Below are positions 13,100-59,340 of a DNA stretch of 64,000 bases, piece by piece (within the stretch, counting starts at the first letter, position 1; every line of letters begins with the position of its first letter). This DNA comes from Torpedo marmorata (Eukaryota): contig OZ360220.1 in assembly GCA_977017645.1 (NCBI GenBank), forward strand, positions 287,618,001 to 287,682,000, in the 5' to 3' direction. The position numbers were made by a program, and so were the translations under genes. The notes below the pieces were generated by a model. That model did not search any database. It had not been told where the DNA came from and saw only the letters and a program-made list of their open reading frames with translations.

Positions 13100-14785
13100 C
13101 TCCACAAGTGATGCAAAGAAATCTGTGTACCTTGGCCTTAAATGCATTCAATTCTCAAGCATTGATTTGCCATCTTCACAGTTGCCATGATGTGATGGTT
13201 CCAGGAGAGGGCTTCTCAAAAATGGACACCCAGGAACTTGAAGGTTCTGACTCTCTCCATCTCTGTTCCATCAATGTGGACAGATATATGGTCTCTCGGA
13301 CTCCCCTTCCTAAAATCAACAATATGGTCCTTGGTCTTGGTGACGTTGAGACCAAGATTGATGATCTGGCACCAAACCAGATTCTCATCAATTCCAGTTA
13401 TTCGACCAACAAGGGTGCTGTCATCAATAAGTTTGTCGATTGAGTTTCTGCCGAACATGTCTACGCAGTCAAGGGTGTACAGGGAGTAGAGCAGGGGACT
13501 AAACACACAGCCTTAGGGTGCCCCTGTGTTGATGGTCAGCGTGGAGGAGGTGATATTGCTGATTCACACCGATTGGGGTCTGCTGATGAGGAAGTTTAGG
13601 ATTTTGTCACAGAAGGATGAATGAAGTCCCAATCCTTTAGTTTGGTCAGAGGTTTGCTGATATAATCGTGTTGAATGCCCAACTTTTGTCAATGAACAAC
13701 AGCTCCAGGTAGGTGTTCCTGTGGTCTAGGTGATCTAAAGCAGAGTGGAGGACCAGCGAGATGGTATCTGCCATTGATCTGTGGTGATGATAGGCAAATT
13801 GAAGTGGGTTCAAGTCCTTCCTGAGATGGGAGTTGATGCACCATAACCAACTTCTCAAAGCACTTCATCACAGTAGATGTCAGAGCCACCGGCCAATAGT
13901 CACTGAGGCAAGTCACCTGCTCTTGGGCACTGGAATGATGGCTGCCCTTTTGAAGCAGGTGGTGGGGTCCTCTGACCATTGTAGGGAAAGGTTCAAAATG
14001 TCCATAAAAACTCCAGCCTGTTGGTTCACACAGCTTTTAAGGACACGGCCCGGTCCACCATCTGAGCTGGATGCTTTTCTAGCATTCACCTACACGAAGG
14101 ATCTGTTTACCTCAGCCTCAGAACCTGGGAGCACAGAATCTCCAGGGGCTGTGGGGGCTTGTGAGGATTCTTGATAGTGTTCACTTTTGAAGTGAACATA
14201 GAAGGCTTTGATTTCGTCTGGAAGACATTTATAACAGTTAATGATATTGTTTCTCCTTATAGGATGTAATGGCATGCAAGCTTGCCAAAGCTGTTGAGCA
14301 TCTGCCTAAGACTCCAGCTTGGTCTGGAATTGTCCCATTGAGTTGGTGATGGCCTTCCGGAACTGGTACCTGATCTTTCTGTATGTTTCTGAATCTCCTG
14401 ATGTAAAAGCCACAGATCAGGTCTTCAACAGTTTATGGATCCCTTGGTTCATCCATGACTTCTGATTTGGAAACACCCAGATAGTCTTAGTCGGAACGCA
14501 CGCATCCACACATTTCTTGGTAAAGTCGGTAACCATTGTGGCATGTAGAGGTAAAGGTTCCATTATTGTCACATGATACTACATTTAGAATGTAACATAC
14601 ATGAAATTCTTTAATTTTTGTCTACTGTAAGGCAAACAGAGGGTCACTATTTTGTCCAGCGCCCCTCACAGAAACCTACAGCACCTGGTGTTCCTTGGCA
14701 GTCTCCCCTCCAAGTACTGACCAGTCCTGTGCCTGCTTAGCTTCCGAGATCAGACAATCCCAGTCGTATTCATTCAGATCCACTT
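13100..14785 (-). mobile_element. Degraded Rex1/Babar LINE internal fragment, interrupted by a SINE
   Basis: Minus-strand peptides PVALTSTVMKCFE, DLNPLQFAY, LFID..AFNTI and SPLLYSLYT are homologous to the 21322-23292 ORF, with many frameshifts. Confidence 0.9.
14545..14772 (-). mobile_element. 5S rRNA-derived SINE (SINE3-type) or 5S-LINE chimera with Rex1/Babar-like 3' tail
   Basis: 14672-14772 on the minus strand is collinear with vertebrate 5S rRNA nt ~20-120 (exact GTCTGATCTCGGAAGCTAAGCAGG; about 80% identity by eye to the recalled human 5S). It is followed by a ~125-bp tail ending AAGAATTTCATG...GTGACAATAATGGAACCTTTACCT. Confidence 0.8.
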
Positions 14786-19557: not shown

Positions 19558-21321
19558 CTCAAAGACAAAAGAAGTCAGTTGTAAGAAAATCTAACACTCT
19601 GGGAAGACAGGGGATTGAAACAGACTGTACCAGACTGGAGAAACTCTGACACTTTGAAGAGCCAAAGATTTGAAGCATTCTGAAGAAATTTGACTTCCTG
19701 GAAAGTCAGGATTATGAGCAGTGATCTCTGAATGGATAGAGGTACTGTCTCTATGTATTATCCTTATCATAGGAAATACATAATAAGTGGCTTTTAAAAT
19801 AAGTAAGACCACTTTCCAATTGCTTCTAAGAAAAGAGGACATAACCGTATGTTACTCATGATTAAGAAAGAAATCATCTTGAAGATCACAGTTCCGTAAC
19901 CCTAACAAGATAGGGAGAAACTTGTGAAAACGCTCGTATGAAGACAATCTCTGAAAGACAACTCATCAAAAGACTTGTGAGTTTGAAAGAAATCGGATGT
20001 TTCACTTTTGCCTTATTTACTTCTGAATCACAATTTAAAGGGATCCTAAAGTTCAACAAGAAGTTGGAAACTGGACTTTAAAATTGACTTTTCAGATTTA
20101 AGTTTAAACTGAAATAGTTTGGACTTCAACACACACACATTTACATTTGTGCATAGTGGGGTTTAAGTTAGAGATAAGTTTAGAGATAAATAAGAAATGT
20201 TATGTTATTAATAGTTTAAATAAAAACTATTTTTCAATTTACCATTGTTTGGTGAATTTTCCATTGCTGTTCCTTTGTTAGTACTAGCAAGGTTTGTTAG
20301 TTCGTAACACTCATACAAATGGAGGGTACAATAGTTTGTTTAAAACTAGTGTATTATGCCTATGAAGGAGGAGTTGGCCATGGTAGACTGGGAAGGTAGG
20401 CTATATGAAGGGACAGTTGAGGAACAGTGGAGGACTTTCAAAGAGATTTTTCATGGTGCTCATCAAAAGTGTGTTCCAGTTGAAAGCAAGGACAGTAAGG
20501 GCGGGGACAGCCAGCCGTGGATAACTAAGGAAATAAAGGAAGGCATCATGCGTACAAAGTCGCCACGGGCAGTGGGAAACTGGAAGATTGGGAAAACTTT
20601 AAAAAGCAACAAAGAACCACAAAGGGAGCAATGAAGAGAGGAAAGGTAGATTATGTAAAAAGATTAGCACAAAATATAAAAATGGACAGTAAAAGTTTTT
20701 ACATTTATATAAAGCAGAAAAGGGTGGCTAAAGTGAAGATTGGTCCCTTGGATGATGAGAAGGGGGAATTGATATTGGGTAATGAGGAAATGGCTGAGGC
20801 TTTGAATGACTATTTTGTGTCAGTGTTCATGGTGGTGGACATGCCAAAGACAGATGTTATGGATGTGATGGGAGGTGAGGACCTGGATGTAATAGCTATC
20901 ACTACATAGGTAGCACTGAGCAAACTTGTGGGTCTCAAGATAGATAAGCCCTCTGGTCCTGACGGAATGCATTCTAGGGTACTGAAAGAAATGGCAGAAT
21001 TTATAGTAGAGGCTTTGGTGCTAATTTACCAAAATTCTCTGGACTCTGGTACAGGTCCTGGTGGACTGGAAGACAGCAAATGTCACGCCTCTATTCAAAA
21101 AACGATGTAGGTAAAAGACAGGGAACTGTCGGCCAGTTAGTTTAACATCTGTGGTTGGGAAAATGCTTGAAGCAATCATTAAAGAAGAAATAGCGAGGCA
21201 TCTGGAATGAAATGGATCCACCAGGCAGACGCAGCATGGATTCAGCAAATGCAGGTCCTGTTTGATGAACTTACTGGAGTTCTTTGAGGATATAATGAGC
21301 ACGGTAGATAGAGGGGAGCAG

Positions 21322-23292
21322 ATGGCTGTACTTCTACTCCCGGCGTACAAGCAGAGACTGAAGACCACAGCACCAGTGGTGAGGACAGCGAAAGTGTGGA
21401 CGAGAGAGGCGGAGGAGTGTCTGCAGGACTGCTTTGAATCGGTGGACTGGAACATATTCAAACACTCAGCCATAGACCTAAATGAATATGCAACAGGTGT
21501 CACCGACTTCATCAAGACCTGCGTGGAGGAGTGTGTGCCCACGCGCAAATACCGGGTGTTCCCCAACCAGAAGCCCTGGATGAATCAAAGAATTCGCAAC
21601 CTGCTGAGGACGAGAACAAGAGCGTTTAAGGCCGGGGACCGGGATCTTTACAAAAAGTCCAGGTACGACCTGGGGAAGGCCATCTCTGAAGCAAAGTGGC
21701 AATTCCGGAGGAAGCTAGAGACAGAGACAGATACACGCCAGCTATGGCAGGGAGTGCAGGCCATTACAGCCTACAAAGTGAGGGCAAACACTATAGACGG
21801 CTGTGATGCTTCACTACCCGATGAGCTGAACACCTTCCATACCCGCTTTGAGAAGAAGAACAAAACAGTGCCTACTAGAATCCCTGAAAAGGCTGAGGTC
21901 CCTGTGATATCTGTCTCTGAGGGCGACGTCAGAACATCATTCAAGAGGGTGAACCCTCGCAAGGCGTCAGGCCCTGACGGTGTACCTGGCAGGGTATTGA
22001 AAATCTGCGGCAACCAACTAGCCGGAGTGTTCACGGACATTTTCAACCTCTCATTGCGGCAGTCAGAGGTTCCCACCTGCTTCAAAAGGGCATCAATCAT
22101 CCAGGTACCCAAGAAGAGCAGTGTGAGCTGCCTCAACGACTACTGCCCAGTAGCACTAACTTCTACTGTGATTAAATGCTTTGAGAGGCTGGTCATGGCC
22201 AGAATTAACACATACCTAAGCAAAGATCTGGACCCACTGCAATTCGCCTATCGCCACAATCGCTCCACAGCAGATGCAATATCGCTGGCTCTCCACTCAG
22301 CTCTGGATCACCTCGAAAACAGCAATTCATACATACGGTTGCTCTTCATCGACTACAGCTCAGCCTTCAATACCATTATTCCCTCAGTGCTGGTCAAGAA
22401 ACTACAAACTCTAGGCCTCTGTACCCCCCTCTGCAACTGGATCCTTGACTTTCTCATTGGAAGACCACAGTCAGTACGAATTGGAAACAACGTCTCCTTC
22501 TCACTGATTATCAACACAGGCGCACCCCAAGGATGCGTGCTTAGCCCACTGCTCTACTCGTTATACACTCATGACTGTGTGGCCAGGCACAATTCCAATG
22601 CCATATACAAGTTTGCCGATGACACCACAGTTGTCGGCAGAATCACAAACGGCAATGAGGAAGCGTACAGGAGGGAGATAGATCAGCTCGTTGAATGGTG
22701 TAATGACAACAACCTTGAGCTCAACGTCAGCAAAACCAAGGAGATAATTGTGGACTTCCAGAGGAAGTCAGGGGAACACGACCCAGTCCTCATCGAGGGC
22801 TCAGTAGTGGAGAGGGTCAAGAACTTCAAATTCCTGGGTGTCAACATCTCCGAGGATCTGTCCTGGAGCATCCACGTGGATGCAATCACAAAGAAGGCTC
22901 GTCAGCGGCTATACTTTGTGAGGTGTTTGTGGAGATTCGGTATGTCAGCAAAGACTCTCGTAAACTTCTACAGGTGTACCGTGGAGAGCATTCTGGCTGG
23001 TTGCATCACTGCCTGGTATGGCGGCGCCAACTCCCAGGACAAGAGTAAACTCCAGAAGGTTGTTAACTCGGCCTGTGACATCACAGGCACCAAACTTCAC
23101 TCCATCGAGGACATCTACATAAGGCGGTGTCTTAAAAAAGCAGCCTCTATCCTCAAGGACCCCCACCACCCAGGCCATGCCCTCTTCACTTTGCTTCCAT
23201 CAGGGAAAAGGTACAGGAGCCTAAAGACGAGCACTCAATGGCACAAGGACAGCTTCTTCCCCTCTGCTGTCAGATTCCTGAATAATCAATGA
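21322..23292 (+). CDS. Uninterrupted Rex1/Babar reverse transcriptase ORF (endonuclease domain largely truncated)
   Basis: Part of the 676-aa ORF 21262-23292 with no stops. RT motifs [47 protein letters not shown] and KFLG, plus a Rex-type C-terminus. There is no evidence of expression. Confidence 0.8.
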   Translation: MAVLLLPAYKQRLKTTAPVVRTAKVWTREAEECLQDCFESVDWNIFKHSAIDLNEYATGVTDFIKTCVEECVPTRKYRVFPNQKPWMNQRIRNLLRTRTRAFKAGDRDLYKKSRYDLGKAISEAKWQFRRKLETETDTRQLWQGVQAITAYKVRANTIDGCDASLPDELNTFHTRFEKKNKTVPTRIPEKAEVPVISVSEGDVRTSFKRVNPRKASGPDGVPGRVLKICGNQLAGVFTDIFNLSLRQSEVPTCFKRASIIQVPKKSSVSCLNDYCPVALTSTVIKCFERLVMARINTYLSKDLDPLQFAYRHNRSTADAISLALHSALDHLENSNSYIRLLFIDYSSAFNTIIPSVLVKKLQTLGLCTPLCNWILDFLIGRPQSVRIGNNVSFSLIINTGAPQGCVLSPLLYSLYTHDCVARHNSNAIYKFADDTTVVGRITNGNEEAYRREIDQLVEWCNDNNLELNVSKTKEIIVDFQRKSGEHDPVLIEGSVVERVKNFKFLGVNISEDLSWSIHVDAITKKARQRLYFVRCLWRFGMSAKTLVNFYRCTVESILAGCITAWYGGANSQDKSKLQKVVNSACDITGTKLHSIEDIYIRRCLKKAASILKDPHHPGHALFTLLPSGKRYRSLKTSTQWHKDSFFPSAVRFLNNQ

Positions 23293-23448
23293 ACCAAAGA
23301 CACTACCTTACTTTTCGTGCACTATTGTTTATAATTTTGTATAGTAATGACGTTAGATGGTTAATATGAATGTTAATTGCACTATGATGCTGCCGCAAAA
23401 CACCGAATTCATGACTTGTTCATGACAATAAATTCTGATTCTGATTCT
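21326..23448 (+). mobile_element. Young 5'-truncated Rex1/Babar LINE, (ATTCTG)n tail family, inserted in CR1 RT
   Basis: 5-bp TSD GATGG (21321-21325 and 23449-23453). Removing it restores the CR1 peptide VDRGEQMDVVYLD. Tail is TGACAATAAATTCTGATTCTGATTCTGA. Confidence 0.95.
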
Positions 23449-24153
23449 GATGGATGTTGTTTACCTGGATTTACAGAAGGCATTTGATAAGGTGCCGCAT
23501 AAAAGACGTACATAAGAAAAGGATGCATAGAGTTGGGGGTGATGTATTAGCATGGGTAGAGGATTGGTTAACCTATAGAAAGCAGAGTTGGGATACAGGG
23601 GTGTTTTTCTGTTTGGCAATCAATAGCGGGGTACCGCAGCGGTCGGTGCTGGGCCCACAGCTGTTCACAATATACATTAATGATCTGGAAGAGGGGACAG
23701 AGTGTAGTGCATCTCAGTTTGCTGATGACACTAAATTGAGTGGAAAAGAAAATTGTGCAGAGGATACGGAGAGTCTGCAGAGAGATATAGATAGGTTAAG
23801 TGAGTGGGCAAGGGTCTGGCAGATGGAGTACAATGTTGGTAAATGTGAGGTTATCCACTTTGGAAGGAAAAATGGAAGATCAGATCATTATTTAAATGGC
23901 AAGCGATAGCAGCATGCTGCCATGCAGAAGGACTTGGGAGTTAATAAGCCTTTGCTCAGACTAATGATCAGCTTCTTGTGCAGCTATTCCTATTAAGTGA
24001 TGTGTGACCCTCGATTTGAATTGTAGACAGCACCAGGGGCCTTTCAAAGCTATTTTGCTAAAATGAAAAAACTTTATTTGGCAAAAGAAGTGTTCCGAGG
24101 CCTTTTGGTGATTGTTTATTTTCTACAAGAGATTAAGCTGCAATTCATGATAG

Positions 24154-24587: not shown

Positions 24588-25280
24588 ATGAGTGAACAGG
24601 CAGCAGTCAACGCGGTCGCTCTCAAGCTGCCGACCTTCTGGACGAATCAACCACGCGTGTGATTTGACCAGGCTGAGGCACAGTTCCAGATCCGGCAGAT
24701 CACAGCAGAATCTACCCGGTACTACCACGTGGTGTGTGCCCTGGATCGGGACTCAGCAGGCCGGGTGGCCAACTTCATCCAGGACCCCCCATCGGAAGGC
24801 GCGTACACCGCCTTCAAGGACTTGCAAATCGAGACCTTCGGGCTCTCACGGCGTGAGAGAGGGGAATGTCTGCTCCACCTGGACGGGCTAGGGGACAGGC
24901 CCCCGTCAGCCCTCGTGAACGAGATGCTGGCCCTCCTGGGCAAATACGAGCCCTGCATCATGTTCAAGCAGGAATTCCTGGAGCAATTGCCCGAGGACAT
25001 CCAACTGCTCCTGGCTGACGCGGATTTCAGCGACCCCTGGAAAATCGCAGCACGAGCGGATGTTCTGTGGAAACAGAAGAGAGAGTGCTCAGCCTCCGTG
25101 GGGCTCGTCACTAAACCCCACAGCCAGACCCGTGCAGAGCGGCCGATAGAACAGCAGCGCCCCAGAGGAGGTGATCCAGACGACCAGTGGTGTTTCTACC
25201 ACCAGAGATGGGGTGCCGGAGCCCGCCGGTGCAGGCCGCCATGTACATTTCAGGGAAATTCCGGGGCCAGCCGTCGCTAA
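24588..25280 (+). pseudogene. gag: Gypsy gag-like ORF with one premature stop
   Basis: MSEQAAVNAVALKLPTFWTNQPRV*FDQAEAQF continues in frame with ORF 24729-25280. C-terminal CFYH...C...C motif. Confidence 0.85.
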
Positions 25281-25298
25281 TGGCCACGACGGCTGGCC
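25253..25298 (+). promoter_or_regulatory. -1 programmed ribosomal frameshift signal (gag-pol)
   Basis: G_GGA_AAT heptamer in gag phase, 5-nt spacer, and a perfect 12-bp stem GGCCAGCCGTCG / CGACGGCTGGCC. The protease lies in the -1 frame. Confidence 0.8.
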
Positions 25299-28200
25299 AC
25301 CAAGATAGCCTCCTGTACGTTTGGGACCGCCCGTCCGAATGACGCTTCCTCGTGGACACAGGAGCAGAGGTCAGCGTCCTGCCCCCGTCGGGACAGGACA
25401 CCAGGAACAGATAGTCGCGCCCCACGCTGAGGGCTGCCAACAACAGCACGATTCAGACCTACGGTACCCGAAAGGCCCAACTGCATTTGGGAGGCAGCCC
25501 CTTCTCATGGGTATTCACGCTGGCCGCAGTGGAACAGCCGCTCCTCGGGGCAGACTTCCTGCGCACCCACAGCTTGCTAGTGGACCTCAAGGGAAGGAGA
25601 TTGGTCAACGCCAAGACTTTTCAAACCTTCCCCCTCAAAGACGCCCGGCTCCCAGCACTCCACCTGGACTCCATACAGAGATCAGACAATGAGTACGCCA
25701 GGGTCCTGGCCGAGTTCCCTGCAGTGCTTACCCCCAATTCACCATGGTGATGCCCCGACATGGAGTACAGCACCACATCCTGACCCAGGGCCCACCGCTC
25801 CACGTAAGGGCAAGACGCTTTCCTCCGGAGAAGCTCCAGCTGGTGAAGGAGGAATTCATGAAGCTGGAGGAGCTCGGCATCATACGGCGGTCGGACAGCC
25901 CATGGGCTTCTCCCCTGCACATGGTACCCAAAGCAACTGGGGACTGGAGACCATGTGGCGACTACCGTCGGCTCAACGAGGCCACAACACCGGATCGGTA
26001 CCCCGTGCCGCACATCCAGGACTTCGCGGCTAACCTGCATGGGGCAAGGATCTTCTCCAAGGTGGACCTCGTGCGGGGATATCATCAGATCCCGGTACAC
26101 TCCGAGGATATCCCGAAGACAGCCATCATCACCCTGTTCGGCCTTTTCGAATTCCTCCGAATGCCGTTCGGGCTAAAGAACACCGCACAGACCTTCCAGC
26201 GACTCATGGACGCGGTGGGCCGAGACCTGGTCGGCACCTTCGTGTACCTTGACGACATCCTGGTGGCGAGCAGGAACCAACAGGAGCATATGTTGCACCT
26301 CCGCAACATCTACACCCGACTGAACGAGTTCGGCCTGACGATCAACTCAGCCAAATGCCAGTTTGGATTGGAGGCCATCGACTTCCTGGGCCACAGGATA
26401 ACCAGGGAAGGAGCCACACCGCTACCCAGTAAAGTGGAGGCCATCCGGAAGTTCCCCAGACCCAACACGACCAAGGGACTACAGGAGTTCGTGGGGATGA
26501 TCAATTTCTATCACAGGTTCATCCCCTCAACTGCCCGGATCATGCGGCCCTTGTTCGCCCGGATGGCAGGCAAGGCGAAAGACATCACCTGGGACGAGGA
26601 GTCAGCGGAATTCTTCATGAAGGCCAAGGACGCCCTGGCGGATGCCGCTCTCCTGGCACATCCCAGGGCAGATGCTCCAACGGCCCTGACGGTGGATGCC
26701 TCAGGAACGGCGATCGGTGGAGTTCTGGAGCAGCAGATCGAAGGAAGTTGGCGGCCGCTGGCTTTCTTCATCAAACATCTGCGGCCCCCAGAACTGAAGT
26801 ACAGCGCTTTCGACATAGAGCAACTAGCGCTGTACTTAGCCATCTGCCACTTCAGGTACTTCCTAGAGGGCAGGTCTTTCACGGCTTTCACAGATCACAA
26901 GCCCCTGACTTTTGCCTTGGCTAAGATCTCGGACCCCTGGGAAGCCTGCCAGCAGCGACACCTGTCTTACATCTCGGAGTACACCACAGATGTAAGGCAC
27001 GTCTCCGGTAGGGACAACATGGTGGCCGACGCACTGTCCAGGCAAAGTATCCATGCGCTATCAAGGGGAGTGGACTTCGTGGCACTGGCGGAGGCGCAGC
27101 AGAAAGACGAGGAGATGCCCCAGTACAGGACTGACATATCGGGACTGCAGCTCCAGGACATCCCAGTCAGCACAGGTAACACCACCCTCCTGTGCGACGT
27201 GGCCACCGGTCAGGTCAGACCCATCGTCCCGGCGGCTTGGAGACGACAAGTTTTCGACTCCATCCACGGACTGGCTCACCCATCCGTCAGGACCATGGTC
27301 CGGCTGGTGGCCAGCAAATATGTGTGGCATGGATTGTGGAAACAGGTCAGCGGGTGGGCGAAGGCGTGCACGCAATGCCAAACAGCCAAGGTACAGCAGC
27401 ACACAAAGACCCCACCTCAGCACTTCGAGCCCGCAGAACGAAGGTTCGACCACATCCACGTGGACATAGTAGGACCCTTTCCGGTATCCCAGGGTTTCCG
27501 CTATCTGTTCACGATGGTCGACCGCTTCACCAGGTGGCCAGAAGCAGTCCCGCTGGCAGACACATCCACAACCTCGTGCGCCAGGGCCCTCATCTCGTCC
27601 TGGGTGGCACGGTTTGGGTTACCATCCCACATAACATCCGACAGAGGGGCCCAGTTTACCTCCAGTCTGTGGTCTGACCTCGCCAGCCTGTAGGGTGCCC
27701 AGCTGCATCACACAACAGCTTATCACCCACAGTCCAATGGATTGATGGAACGCTTCCACAGGCACCTCAAGACCGCGCTCACGACCAGACTCCAAGGTCC
27801 CATCTGGGTATACGAGCTACCATGGGCGCTGTTGGGCATCCGCACGGCACCCAAGGAGGACCTCAACACCTCTTTGGCCGAACTCGTCTACGTAGCTCCA
27901 CTGGTGGTCCCGGGAGAATTCGTACCATCCCCAGGCGGGCAGCAGGACGACTCTGCAGTGTTCCTCAGCAGGCTAAGGGAAAGAGTCGGCTACCTGGCCC
28001 CGATTTCACCTTCCAGGCATGGACAGGCGAGGACCAACATACCCAGAGACCTGCAGGACTGTGAGTATGTTTTCATTCGCACGGGTCCACATCGTCCACC
28101 GCTTCAGAGTCCATACGAGGGTCCATTCCGGGTCATCCTCAACAACGGGGCCACGTTCGAGCTGGAGGTCAGAGGCAAGATGGAGGTCTTCACCACAGAT

Positions 28201-28340
28201 AGGCTGAAGCCAGCACACCTGGACCCGATGCGCCCGGTCGAGACACCAGCACCACGCCTCAGAGGCAGGCCACTGAAGGCTGCAGAGACTTTGCCTCCGG
28301 GGCACCAAGGACCAGACCACCGGTTCTGGGTGGAGGGTCA
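25280..28340 (+). pseudogene. pol: Gypsy pol (protease, RT, RNase H, integrase)
   Basis: FLVDTGAEVS, MPFGLKN, YLDD, VDAS/TDHKPL/ADALSR, HHCC zinc finger, DIVGP/SDRG/ERFH and a GPF motif. Stops near 25340, 25411 and 27691 and a frameshift near 25740. Confidence 0.95.
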
Positions 28341-28732
28341 TGTGGCAGCCCGCCTCGGCGGCGATTAAGCCTGCGATCTGGGCAGCGAGCGCAACCAAAG
28401 GCCAGCAGACCGCGCAGCGGCACTGGCCCCAACAGGCGAACCGGCGGGTGAATGGCAAGGGCAGCTTAAAGGCCAGCGACCCCAAAATGGCGCTGGCCTT
28501 GCTGCAAAGCCAACAGACAGGAACAGCGCGCGGGGAAGAAAGTATTATTATGCAGGAAAGTACCCGCGCGCGGGAAACTCGCTTTTGTTATGCATGTTGT
28601 GACGTCAGTCAAAGGAGGCCACGGCGGGAACAGTGCAAATATAAAAGTCGGGCCTGAGTCCTAATAAAAACTCAGAGCTTAACTTGACTACACTACGTGT
28701 GTGTGTCTTCTTTAATGTAGCGCACGGCTACA
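28341..28732 (+). repeat. Gypsy 3' LTR, preceded by the polypurine tract GGGTGGAGGG (28328-28337)
   Basis: Direct repeat of the 5' LTR, ends GCTACA and is followed by the TSD. Confidence 0.95.
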
Positions 28733-57159: not shown

Positions 57160-59340
57160 GTCAGGTTACTATTCATAGACCACAGCTCCGCCTTTAACAC
57201 AATAGTGCCAAGTAAATTCATCCCAAACTCCGTGACCTTGACCTCAGCATCCCCCTCTGCAATTGGATCTACAACATCCTGACCTGCAGATCACAATCAA
57301 TGAGGATTGGAGATTGCGCCTCCTCCACAATCATCTTCAACATGGAAGCCCCACAAGGCTGTGTACGCCCACCCCAACTATACTCCCTGCACACTCATGG
57401 ATGTGTGGCCAAACACTTCTCTAACTCCAACTATAAATTCGCAGATGACACAACCATCATTGGCAGGATCTCACCAATGATGAGTCAGAATATAGAAGGG
57501 AGATAGAGGGTTGAATGGCTTGCTGTCAAGACAACAACCTCTTCTTCAAGAAGTAAAACACGAAAATCTGTAGACACCATGGTTGAAGTAAAAATACGAT
57601 GTTGGAGAAACTCAGCTGCTCAAACAGTGTCCTTTAAATAGATTTCAGATTTATTGTCAGAGTACATACATGACATCACATACAACCCTGAGATTCCTTT
57701 TTACTGCAGACGCAGCAGAATTACCACTAATTTGTAGTGCAAAAAAAAACTGTACACAGCGTAAAACATGTAAACAAACAAAGAACTGTAAACAGATAAC
57801 AAATGTAAACAAACTGACTGTGCAATACAGAGAGAACAAAAGAAAATCAATAAAGTCCTTAAATGAGTCTCTGATTGAGTATGTGGTTGAGGAGTCTGAT
57901 GGTGGAGGGGTAGCAGCTGTTCCTGAACCTGTTGGTGCGAGTCTTGTGGCACCTATACCTCTTTCCTGATGGCAGCAGCGAGAACAGAGTGTGTGCTGTG
58001 GGTCTTTGATGATTGCTGCTGCTCTCCGACGGCAGCGTTCCCTGTAGATGTACACAATAGTGGGAAGGGTTTTGCCTGTGATGTCCAGGGCTGTGTCCAC
58101 TACCTTTTGGAGGGTTTTACGCTCAGGGGTATTGGTGTTTCCATACCAGACCGTGATGCAGCCGGTCAGCACACTTTCCACCACACCTCTGTAGAAATTT
58201 GCCAGGGTTTCTGGTGTCGTACCAAAGCTCCACAAACTCCTGAGGAAGTAGAGGCGCTGACGTGCTTTCTTCACAATGCCATTGGTGTGTTGGGTCCAGG
58301 AAAGATCCTCCGAGATAGTAACTCCCAAAAACTTAAATTTGCTCACCCTCTCCACCTCTGATCCCCCAATGATCACTGGATTGTATACCTCTGGTTTTCC
58401 CTTCCTGAAGTCAACAATCAGCTCCTTAGTTTTGGTGACATTGAGTGCAAGGTTGTTGTTGGTGCACCATTCAGCCAAGTTTTCAATCTCCATCCTGTAT
58501 GCTGACTCATCCCCTTCCTTTATACAACCCTCTACCGTGATATTGTCAGCAAATTTGTAGATGGTGTTATTGTCGTACCGAGCCACACAGTTGTCGGTGT
58601 AAAGTGAGTAGAGCAGGGGGCTAAGAACACAGCCCTGTGGTGCTCTGGTACTAATGGAGATTGTGGAGGAGAAGTTCTTACCAATCTTCTCTGATTGTGG
58701 TCTGGAGGTGAGGAAATCCATAATCCAATTACACAGTGGGGTGTTAACTCCCAGGTCTTGGAGTTTGCTGATCAGTTTTGAGGGGATGATGGTGTTAAAT
58801 GCCGAACTGTAGTCTGGCAGCTTTAATTTACACAGAGTAAACTTCTCCATCAATGGCCAAAAAAAAAACTTCACCAGTGCCTCTACTTTCTCAGAAGCCT
58901 GAGGAAACTTGGCATGTCACCTACATCCCTCAACAATTTCTACAGATGCACCATTGAAAGTAACCTCAGGATACATCACTGAAAGGTATAGGAACTGCTC
59001 TGCCCAAGACTGCAAGAAACTGCAGAGGATTGTGAACACAGCACAGAAGTAGCAAACATAGCCAGGTCCATCACAGGCTCCAACCTCCCATCCATTGAAG
59101 ACAACTACGTGAGGCGCTGCCTCAAGAAGGCAGCTGACATTATAAAGGACCTCCATCACCCAGGTCACAACCTCTTCTCTCTGCTGCCTTCAAAGCCTGA
59201 CGACAAGCACTTCTTGGTTCAAGAACATTTTTTTTCCAACAGCTATCAGGGTCTTGACTCTCCTCTTGTTGCACTAATCATGGACTGCTCCAACATCAAT
59301 AAAGAACTATCTGCACTATTGTAATGTAACTTTTTTTTCC
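57160..59340 (+). mobile_element. Degraded Rex1/Babar LINE interrupted by a Penelope tail (57549-57636, minus) and a younger Rex
   Basis: LLFIDHSSAFNT, APQGCV and KFADDT at 57160-57545, with the C-terminus RRCLKKAADIIKDLHHPGHNLFSLLPS at 58860-59260. Confidence 0.8.
57641..58814 (-). mobile_element. Rex1/Babar LINE, (AATCTGA)n tail family, 5'-truncated
   Basis: ORF 57657-58874 contains [28 protein letters not shown](N) and KFLG. The 3' UTR matches 1992-2230. Confidence 0.92.

Follow-up and report, generated by a model that had tools for sequence, protein, structure and literature searches.

SINEs headed by 5S rRNA have already been described in more than one form. The Deu-SINEs, such as zebrafish SINE3-1, AmnSINE1, and OS-SINE1, carry a Deu domain of ~330 bp and a tRNA remnant behind a 5S internal promoter head, and a template-switch model accounts for the exchange of heads, in the order tRNA to 5S (PMC4758252, PMC4824008). 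Others consist of a 5S head and LINE-derived parts, namely, Ped-1, CoeSINE5, and SINE-1_Pmo (PMC5786205, PMC3747384). Sister families with 5S and tRNA heads are found on RTE-derived ends in the coelacanth (CoeSINE5/CoeSINE4) and in a moth (HaSE3/HaSE1) (PMC5786205), and on one LINE-derived tail in the springhare (Ped-1/Ped-2) (PMC3747384). The partner LINEs named for SINE3 elements in the accessible text are CR1, I, and RTE, and Rex1 is not among them (PMC7245038); the partner of OS-SINE1 is RSg-1 (PMC3747384). Rex1 itself has a conserved 3' UTR with oligonucleotide repeats (PMC6274825). The rows shown of a table of 5S SINEs include none from sharks or rays (PMC10946416), and the accessible parts of PMC3123226 and PMC9004415 add nothing decisive.

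The window analyzed here, a stretch of 64,000 nucleotides from Torpedo marmorata (assembly GCA_977017645.1, contig OZ360220.1, positions 287,618,001 to 287,682,000), holds one copy of a 5S-headed SINE and no second (Table 1). The family is numerous and uniform in structure, is divided into subfamilies, shares its tail with a tRNA-Thr-headed sister, has a tail donor in a GC-rich noncoding retroelement, and inserts with no target-site duplications (TSDs). We consider it probable that this SINE obtained its tail from the GC-rich element, is transcribed by Pol III, is mobilized by a Rex-type LINE, and gave rise to its tRNA-headed sister by a later head swap.

The comparison with described systems places it as a SINE3 family of known kind that is apparently undescribed and uncatalogued. 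It resembles the Deu-SINEs in its 5S internal promoter head and in head exchange by template switching, but an element of 243 nt has no room for their Deu domain and tRNA remnant, both of which are absent after the 5S head as judged from the alignment of the tail with the GC-rich element rather than from a Deu consensus. As in CoeSINE5/CoeSINE4, a 5S- and a tRNA-headed SINE have the same 3' part, which in the coelacanth comes from a nonautonomous LINE derivative (PMC5786205); compared by description, that 3' part is bipartite RTE, whereas here it is a Rex-type end from a GC-rich noncoding element, without TSDs. The HaSE and Ped sisters likewise share one LINE-derived tail, but they have named RTE/BovB partner LINEs, and none is named here (PMC5786205, PMC3747384). 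A SINE with a Rex1 tail is known from the sea anemone in the pair SINE2-5_NV/Rex1-24_NV, but that SINE is tRNA-headed and its coding partner LINE is known (PMC3747384). The cartilaginous-fish SINEs HE1, SacSINE1, and CmiSINEs differ in having tRNA heads, V, Deu, or CORE bodies, and HER1, L2, or CR1 tails (PMC5499810). An earlier reading of the window, made without database searches (the sequence-only reading), held that all described 5S SINEs have a central body, which is wrong in view of Ped-1, CoeSINE5, and SINE-1_Pmo. RSg-1 may be related to Rex1; therefore, any claim of a new 5S/Rex pairing is limited. No description of the 5S-headed family was found in the literature searched, which comprised few subscription journals and neither Repbase Reports nor the original publications on Ped-1, MEG, and the Deu-SINEs.

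Table 1. Features of the 5S-headed SINE copy and of its insertion site (window coordinates)
Feature	Position	Strand	Remark
5S rRNA-derived head (5S 20-119)	14673..14772	-	First ~15 nt of the element missing here
Box A (5S 50-64)	14728..14742	-	2 substitutions relative to the genome's own 5S gene
Intermediate element (5S 67-72)	14720..14725	-	1 substitution
Box C (5S 80-97)	14695..14712	-	Changes at 84, 96, and 97
TTT at head/tail junction	14672..14674	-	Also the junction point in the tRNA-headed sister
Tail hairpin 1, with G.A mismatch	14639..14667	-	Homologous to the GC-rich element
Tail hairpin 2	14619..14638	-	Conserved in both SINEs and in GC-rich element subfamilies
GAATTTCATG, hairpin 3, TGACAATAA	14563..14609	-	Rex-type 3' end architecture
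Terminal short repeat (ACCTTT)n, here ACCTTT ACCTCT	14545..14562	-	
Host, downstream side: fragment of an old Rex-type LINE	13846..14544	-	67% to window 21488-21776; reaches at least to 13846
Host Rex bases upstream of the insertion, with TGAAT(A) microhomology (target/5S head)	14767..14782	-	

The sequence-only reading was correct in recognizing an indel-free stretch of 5S rRNA on the minus strand, as 14772-14673 corresponds to 5S positions 20-119 with zero indels, and box A, the intermediate element, and box C were found where it placed them, with the control region numbered as in vertebrate type 1 Pol III promoters. This stretch matches Rfam RF00001 at 28.9 bits (E 6e-4), under the gathering score of 38, and three full-length copies of the family score 43 to 48 bits. 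The copy had also been called truncated. Its 5' end is indeed incomplete, but the truncation is slight (~15 nt), as full-length copies mostly begin at 5S positions 3 to 7. The reduced 5S terminator likewise proved real: only TTT is left in the window copy, a T4 run is absent from the family majority, and the junction TTT is too short for stopping Pol III. Directly after the head comes a tail of ~128 nt that ends in TGACAATAA plus ACCTTT/ACCTCT units, and its RNA is predicted to fold into three hairpins (z -3.3, with 1 of 200 shuffles as good).

An exact 26-nt pattern spanning the head/tail junction has 14,342 matches in the 6.2-Gb genome, and the exact 17-nt tail end has 25,061; the reversed-pattern control gave 0 in each case. 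Evenly spaced DNA amounting to 800 kb contains 4 copies of the SINE. From the exact-pattern and spaced-DNA routes, we estimate ~30,000 copies in the genome, dispersed over many contigs; the full element is ~243 nt long plus the repeat tail. Among the first 100 tail ends listed, 83 are 5S-headed (48 assigned by junction coordinates, 8 of them sequence-confirmed, and 35 read), 8 are tRNA-headed, 9 are truncated within the tail, and 0 are LINEs. The family is shorter than 1 kb, interspersed, nontandem, and present in at least 100 copies, the properties by which SINEBase delimits SINEs (PMC3531059). Its 5' end has at least 60% identity to 5S rRNA over at least 60 nt (93/114), with substitutions that are common to the copies and absent from the cellular gene, as in SINE3 elements and not in pseudogenes.

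The multicopy nature of the element, proposed from the window copy alone, is thus evident from one junction and fixed non-5S substitutions in many copies. We regard as refuted the explanations by a single 5S-LINE chimera, by a 5S pseudogene, and by read-through into 5S spacer. Single 5S fusions do occur in this genome, but more than 14,000 identical junctions with common non-5S substitutions exclude a single-copy chimera, and the tail, for which a spacer origin had been named beforehand as a way in which the claim could fail, has no match in the spacer of 20 array loci. The 5S array lies on contig C25 (~86.2 to 86.6 Mb) with a repeat unit of ~3.2 kb. Its units also hold a second, degenerate 5S copy ~1.5 kb downstream of the gene, with the 3' end broken in most.

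The 5S-headed copies differ by 2.9% from their own majority (55 near-full copies), and 21 of the 114 head positions in this majority depart from the 5S gene of the same genome. These substitutions fall on 5 of 48 positions in the control region versus 16 of 66 outside it (p 0.09); conservation of the control region is only a trend, and box C itself has changes. Through the changes in the head, the terminal helix becomes longer and a novel hairpin appears around positions 28 to 47, and it is likely that the SINE RNA no longer folds as 5S. A second 5S class nearer to the head was not found among the 47 scored of ~215,000 rough candidates, and a variant pattern occurred in 7 places. In several SINE copies, the initial 15 to 30 nt are present a second time just upstream, as though by repeated template jumps at the 5' end. 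At one locus, a SINE-type 5S head is followed straight after the TTT by unrelated AT-rich sequence, with no tail.

The relative of the tail is a GC-rich retroelement of ~840 nt (57% GC), with variable 5' truncation in 30 loci of the closest subfamily. It came to light through weak searches of flanking DNA, which gave homologous ends on a repeat other than the SINE. The element itself shows no homology to RT, and no ORF of its majority exceeds 125 codons on the element's strand. The whole length of the SINE tail aligns with the last ~130 nt of this element, 105 of 136 columns being identical to the majority of 30 copies. A conserved central domain is absent from the SINE, as everything outside the 5S head is alignable with the 3' terminus of the GC-rich element, and the SINE junction lies within sequence that continues upstream as the body of that element and not as a LINE. 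The three tail hairpins are kept, and of their 23 predicted pairs, 6 have changed on both sides in a set of 9 sequences; because these sequences are related, the count does not amount to a formal covariation test. Ten long copies of the GC-rich element differ by 11% from their majority, and ~17 pieces occur in 800 kb; the element is older than the SINE. It has several tail subfamilies and starts with an ATGGCG-type hairpin like that of Rex, and some copies lie head to head.

A sister family with a tRNA-Thr head on the same tail was missed by the sequence-only reading. Its head stands on the identical tail type, joined at the same TTT, in 8 of 52 fetched tail-end loci. ARAGORN reports tRNA-Thr(TGT) in 4 of these 8, a mutated anticodon in 2, and nothing in 2, and Rfam tRNA scores are 44 to 68 bits in the 7 loci scanned. 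The exact junction of tRNA head and tail occurs 934 times in the genome, and the tails of the two families differ at 4 of 128 positions. The tRNA-headed copies are 2.6% from their majority (n = 17) versus 2.9% for the 5S-headed copies (p 0.52), an equal age that does not order the sisters. Near-intact copies of 5S (three) or tRNA-Thr (two), with some trailer, are also found fused at five different junctions to one tRNA-derived SINE, presumably HE1/V-SINE-like. These fusions show that jumps between Pol III RNAs and SINEs recur in this genome.

The junction of head and tail falls on the same TTT in the two families, and a replacement of one head by the other is therefore the most likely relation between them. 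Relative to the tRNA-Thr genes of this genome, the tRNA head has changed at 2 of 73 positions, a low rate similar to that between the tails (4/128), against 21 of 114 for the 5S head and its gene (Fisher p 0.001), and therefore we consider it likely that the tRNA head is the later replacement and that the 5S head came first. At 5S positions 96/97, the 5S-headed family has three subfamily states, leading from the gene's own (309 matches) through an intermediate to the main one. Copies with the gene's state there often retain a donor state in the tail, and 5S-headed subfamilies retain donor tail states that the main 5S subfamily has lost. In public runs, with the possible source set aside, the stretch is present under eight other organism codes from nine studies; four were compared, and run X17, with one low-depth contig, was left out of the support. 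None of these runs is listed as RNA, and those suspected of being RNA consist of contigs that are silent on Pol III transcription. The form in organism D is close to that of the T. marmorata genome. In organisms E and G, most of the depth agrees with the gene at 5S positions 62 and 67 and with the donor at three sites in the tail, and contigs that cross or lie on the junction have more 5S-like letters in the head and more donor-like letters in the tail. Other gene-specific letters are not listed for E and G, and thus these are SINE variants and not 5S genes. A duplicated 5S-headed copy (L217/L218) has the gene's letters at 96, 97, and 102 together with donor-like tail letters, and it is possibly a relic of an older subfamily. 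We rejected an old donor-like subfamily as such, as it rests on this one duplicated copy, and 30 of 209 matches to a donor-like motif are ordinary 5S- or tRNA-headed copies.

The opposite order, in which a tRNA-headed SINE came first and its head was replaced by 5S, would require a 5S donor that was already diverged or a head that evolved fast, and we consider it rather unlikely. Its appeal is that the published order in Deu-SINEs is tRNA to 5S (PMC4758252, PMC4824008), that the tRNA head occurs in organism E too (9 contigs, with a loose end), and that the tRNA-type tail retains two donor states lost from the main 5S subfamily. However, 5S-headed subfamilies likewise retain both of these states, the tRNA-type tail has two private changes, and a head at 2/73 is hardly older than a head at 21/114 when the tails differ at only 4/128. 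The counterpoint is that the 5S head may stem from a 5S class that had itself diverged.

Turning to mobilization, the terminal motif suggests that a Rex-type RT likely copies the SINE in trans. A GACAATAA-type motif lies within 350 nt of the ORF end in 32 of 55 Rex, 3 of 57 CR1, and 0 of 46 L1 elements, over a background of 4%, and these counts uphold the Rex-type 3' architecture seen in the sequence-only reading. The Rex-type LINEs here have endonuclease, RT, and PF09004 domains, and on this domain layout we provisionally name them Rex1/Babar. The tail layout had been described as common to the Rex ends at 23400-23450 and 57641-57720. They do share TGACAATAA and a short repeat with it, but they read CCGAATTC and GGAATCTC, not AAGAATTTC, and therefore the shared layout is looser than was stated. 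The SINE shares just this generic terminal layout with the coding Rex LINE and no common 3' sequence, as local alignment of its tail with the last 200 nt of the Rex family is not above shuffles (p 0.45 to 0.70). The best candidate mobilizer is a young Rex family, because it has GAATTTCATG and TGACAATAA in common with the SINE and is of similar age. It is 3.2 kb long with single ORFs of up to ~1,000 codons starting at the very 5' end, its copies are 93 to 97% alike, its start pattern has 1,848 matches, and one member lies at window 21211-23450 (+).

The insertion sites are compatible with priming through the terminal repeat and no long TSD. Among 212 nonredundant SINE copies, 52 have a reconstructable empty site (both flanks in another repeat): the overlap is 1 to 4 nt in 10 and 8 nt in 1, with none longer, 1 is blunt, and 40 have small gaps, many of which are target bases matching the ACCTT repeat. 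The SINE combines a Rex-type terminal motif and short repeat with the lack of a long TSD. The host of the window copy is a 5'-truncated Rex-type copy whose relatives (64 to 74% identical) read ...TGAATATGC... over the insertion site, and uninterrupted relatives read TGAAT-ATGC where the SINE inserted. A TSD of at least 9 nt is absent. As far as relatives of only 64 to 74% identity show, the site would be compatible with a 5- to 6-nt TGAAT(A) microhomology and a duplication of at most 1 nt, in agreement with the proposal of a 5' end on a TGAATA microhomology with no TSD. The same window has, at 24663-28368 (+), consecutive long ORFs resembling gag and pol of a gypsy-type LTR element.

The sequence-only reading had proposed a SINE3/LINE pair with a common tail, and this part was not supported: among the ends sampled, we found no ORF-bearing LINE with the tail and no Rex LINE ending in it, the tail's relative being the noncoding GC-rich retroelement. 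An RT ORF leading into the tail was absent from all of the first 100 listed exact-tail ends, from all 30 GC-tail loci (where adjacent Rex or CR1 copies had their own ends), and from the 15 tail-cluster ends present in 864 kb of evenly spaced DNA. Searches with tail DNA and with a one-base hairpin variant returned SINE copies only, among 30 of 40 and 30 of 77 matches read, respectively. Of the 244 matches to a looser Rex-start pattern, the 30 that were read belonged to the Rex family already found, to GC elements, or to unrelated repeats. The Rex-start pattern matched to the tail occurred in 2 places, both before an apparent L1-type ORF, and these candidates were rejected.

It is unlikely that a dedicated coding Rex LINE with the same tail, now rare or extinct, gave tails to the SINEs and to the GC-rich element. 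Stringent SINE/LINE pairs usually have their 3' end in common (PMC3747384), the sampling is small against 6.2 Gb, and hairpin 1 resembles the Rex 5' end, as a bipartite derivative would; but none of the 100, 30, and 15 ends sampled has an RT ORF, and upstream of the SINE junction the donor continues as GC-element body. As for the resemblance itself, the Rex 5' terminus folds into a hairpin with a G.A mismatch like that of tail hairpin 1. The first 55 nt of the tail compared with the first 60 nt of Rex give p 0.12 and 0.13 for the SINEs and 0.02 for one GC copy, and comparison with the whole of Rex is not significant. We treat a bipartite origin of the tail from a Rex 5' end and a Rex 3' end as a possible lead only.

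A mobilizer other than Rex, that is, another microsatellite-tailed LINE (L2, RTE, or Nimb), is less likely still. The LINE ends sampled are those of Rex, CR1, and L1, and missing TSDs and short-repeat ends also fit CR1/L2-group elements. Against this, all 5 of the GACAATAA end clusters with an RT ORF upstream in 864 kb are Rex-like, with a Rex protein as the sole query, and the motif is rare at CR1 ends (3/57) and absent at L1 ends (0/46).

We return to the Rex-type RT as the probable engine of a 5S-headed SINE, for which the following course may be envisaged. In the founding event, an RT would have copied ~125 nt from RNA of the GC-rich element and then switched to the 3'-terminal oligo-U of a 5S rRNA. 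Transcription by Pol III from the 5S internal promoter is likely, to judge from the promoter elements in the head, and the polymerase would pass the shortened terminator and a tail free of T4 and run on into the DNA beyond. A Rex-type RT would then take up the end composed of three hairpins, GACAATAA, and a short repeat, and would use the repeat for priming at the nicked target. The 5S head would have been exchanged for a near-intact tRNA-Thr by a second jump, again at the junction TTT. On this course, the SINE works like CoeSINE5 or Ped-1, probably with a Rex-type engine. A bolder reading, which we consider doubtful, is that Rex LINEs run a nonautonomous guild through a portable bipartite three-hairpin module, composed of a Rex 5' hairpin and a Rex 3' end, which passed from the GC element to the 5S SINE and on, through a precise swap at three U's, to the tRNA SINE. 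If true, a bipartite Rex module and a replacement of a 5S head by tRNA would each be seen here for the first time, with the two promoters simultaneously active on a shared tail.

Published examples exist both of tRNA/5S sister pairs and of 5S SINEs that lack a conserved central domain, which limits the surprise; what is added here is a noncoding tail donor and a same-tail tRNA sister in which the head swap is likely reversed. The occurrence of the hairpin-GACAATAA-repeat end in families of unrelated sequence points to it as a recognition target of the Rex-type RT. Young insertions without TSDs that are in common between related species would be usable phylogenetic markers. Most of all, the sisters form a natural controlled pair, two families of the same age on one tail with different types of Pol III promoter and a copy number ratio of ~10:1, and they make it testable whether promoter type (TFIIIA dependent versus tRNA type) sets the success of a SINE.
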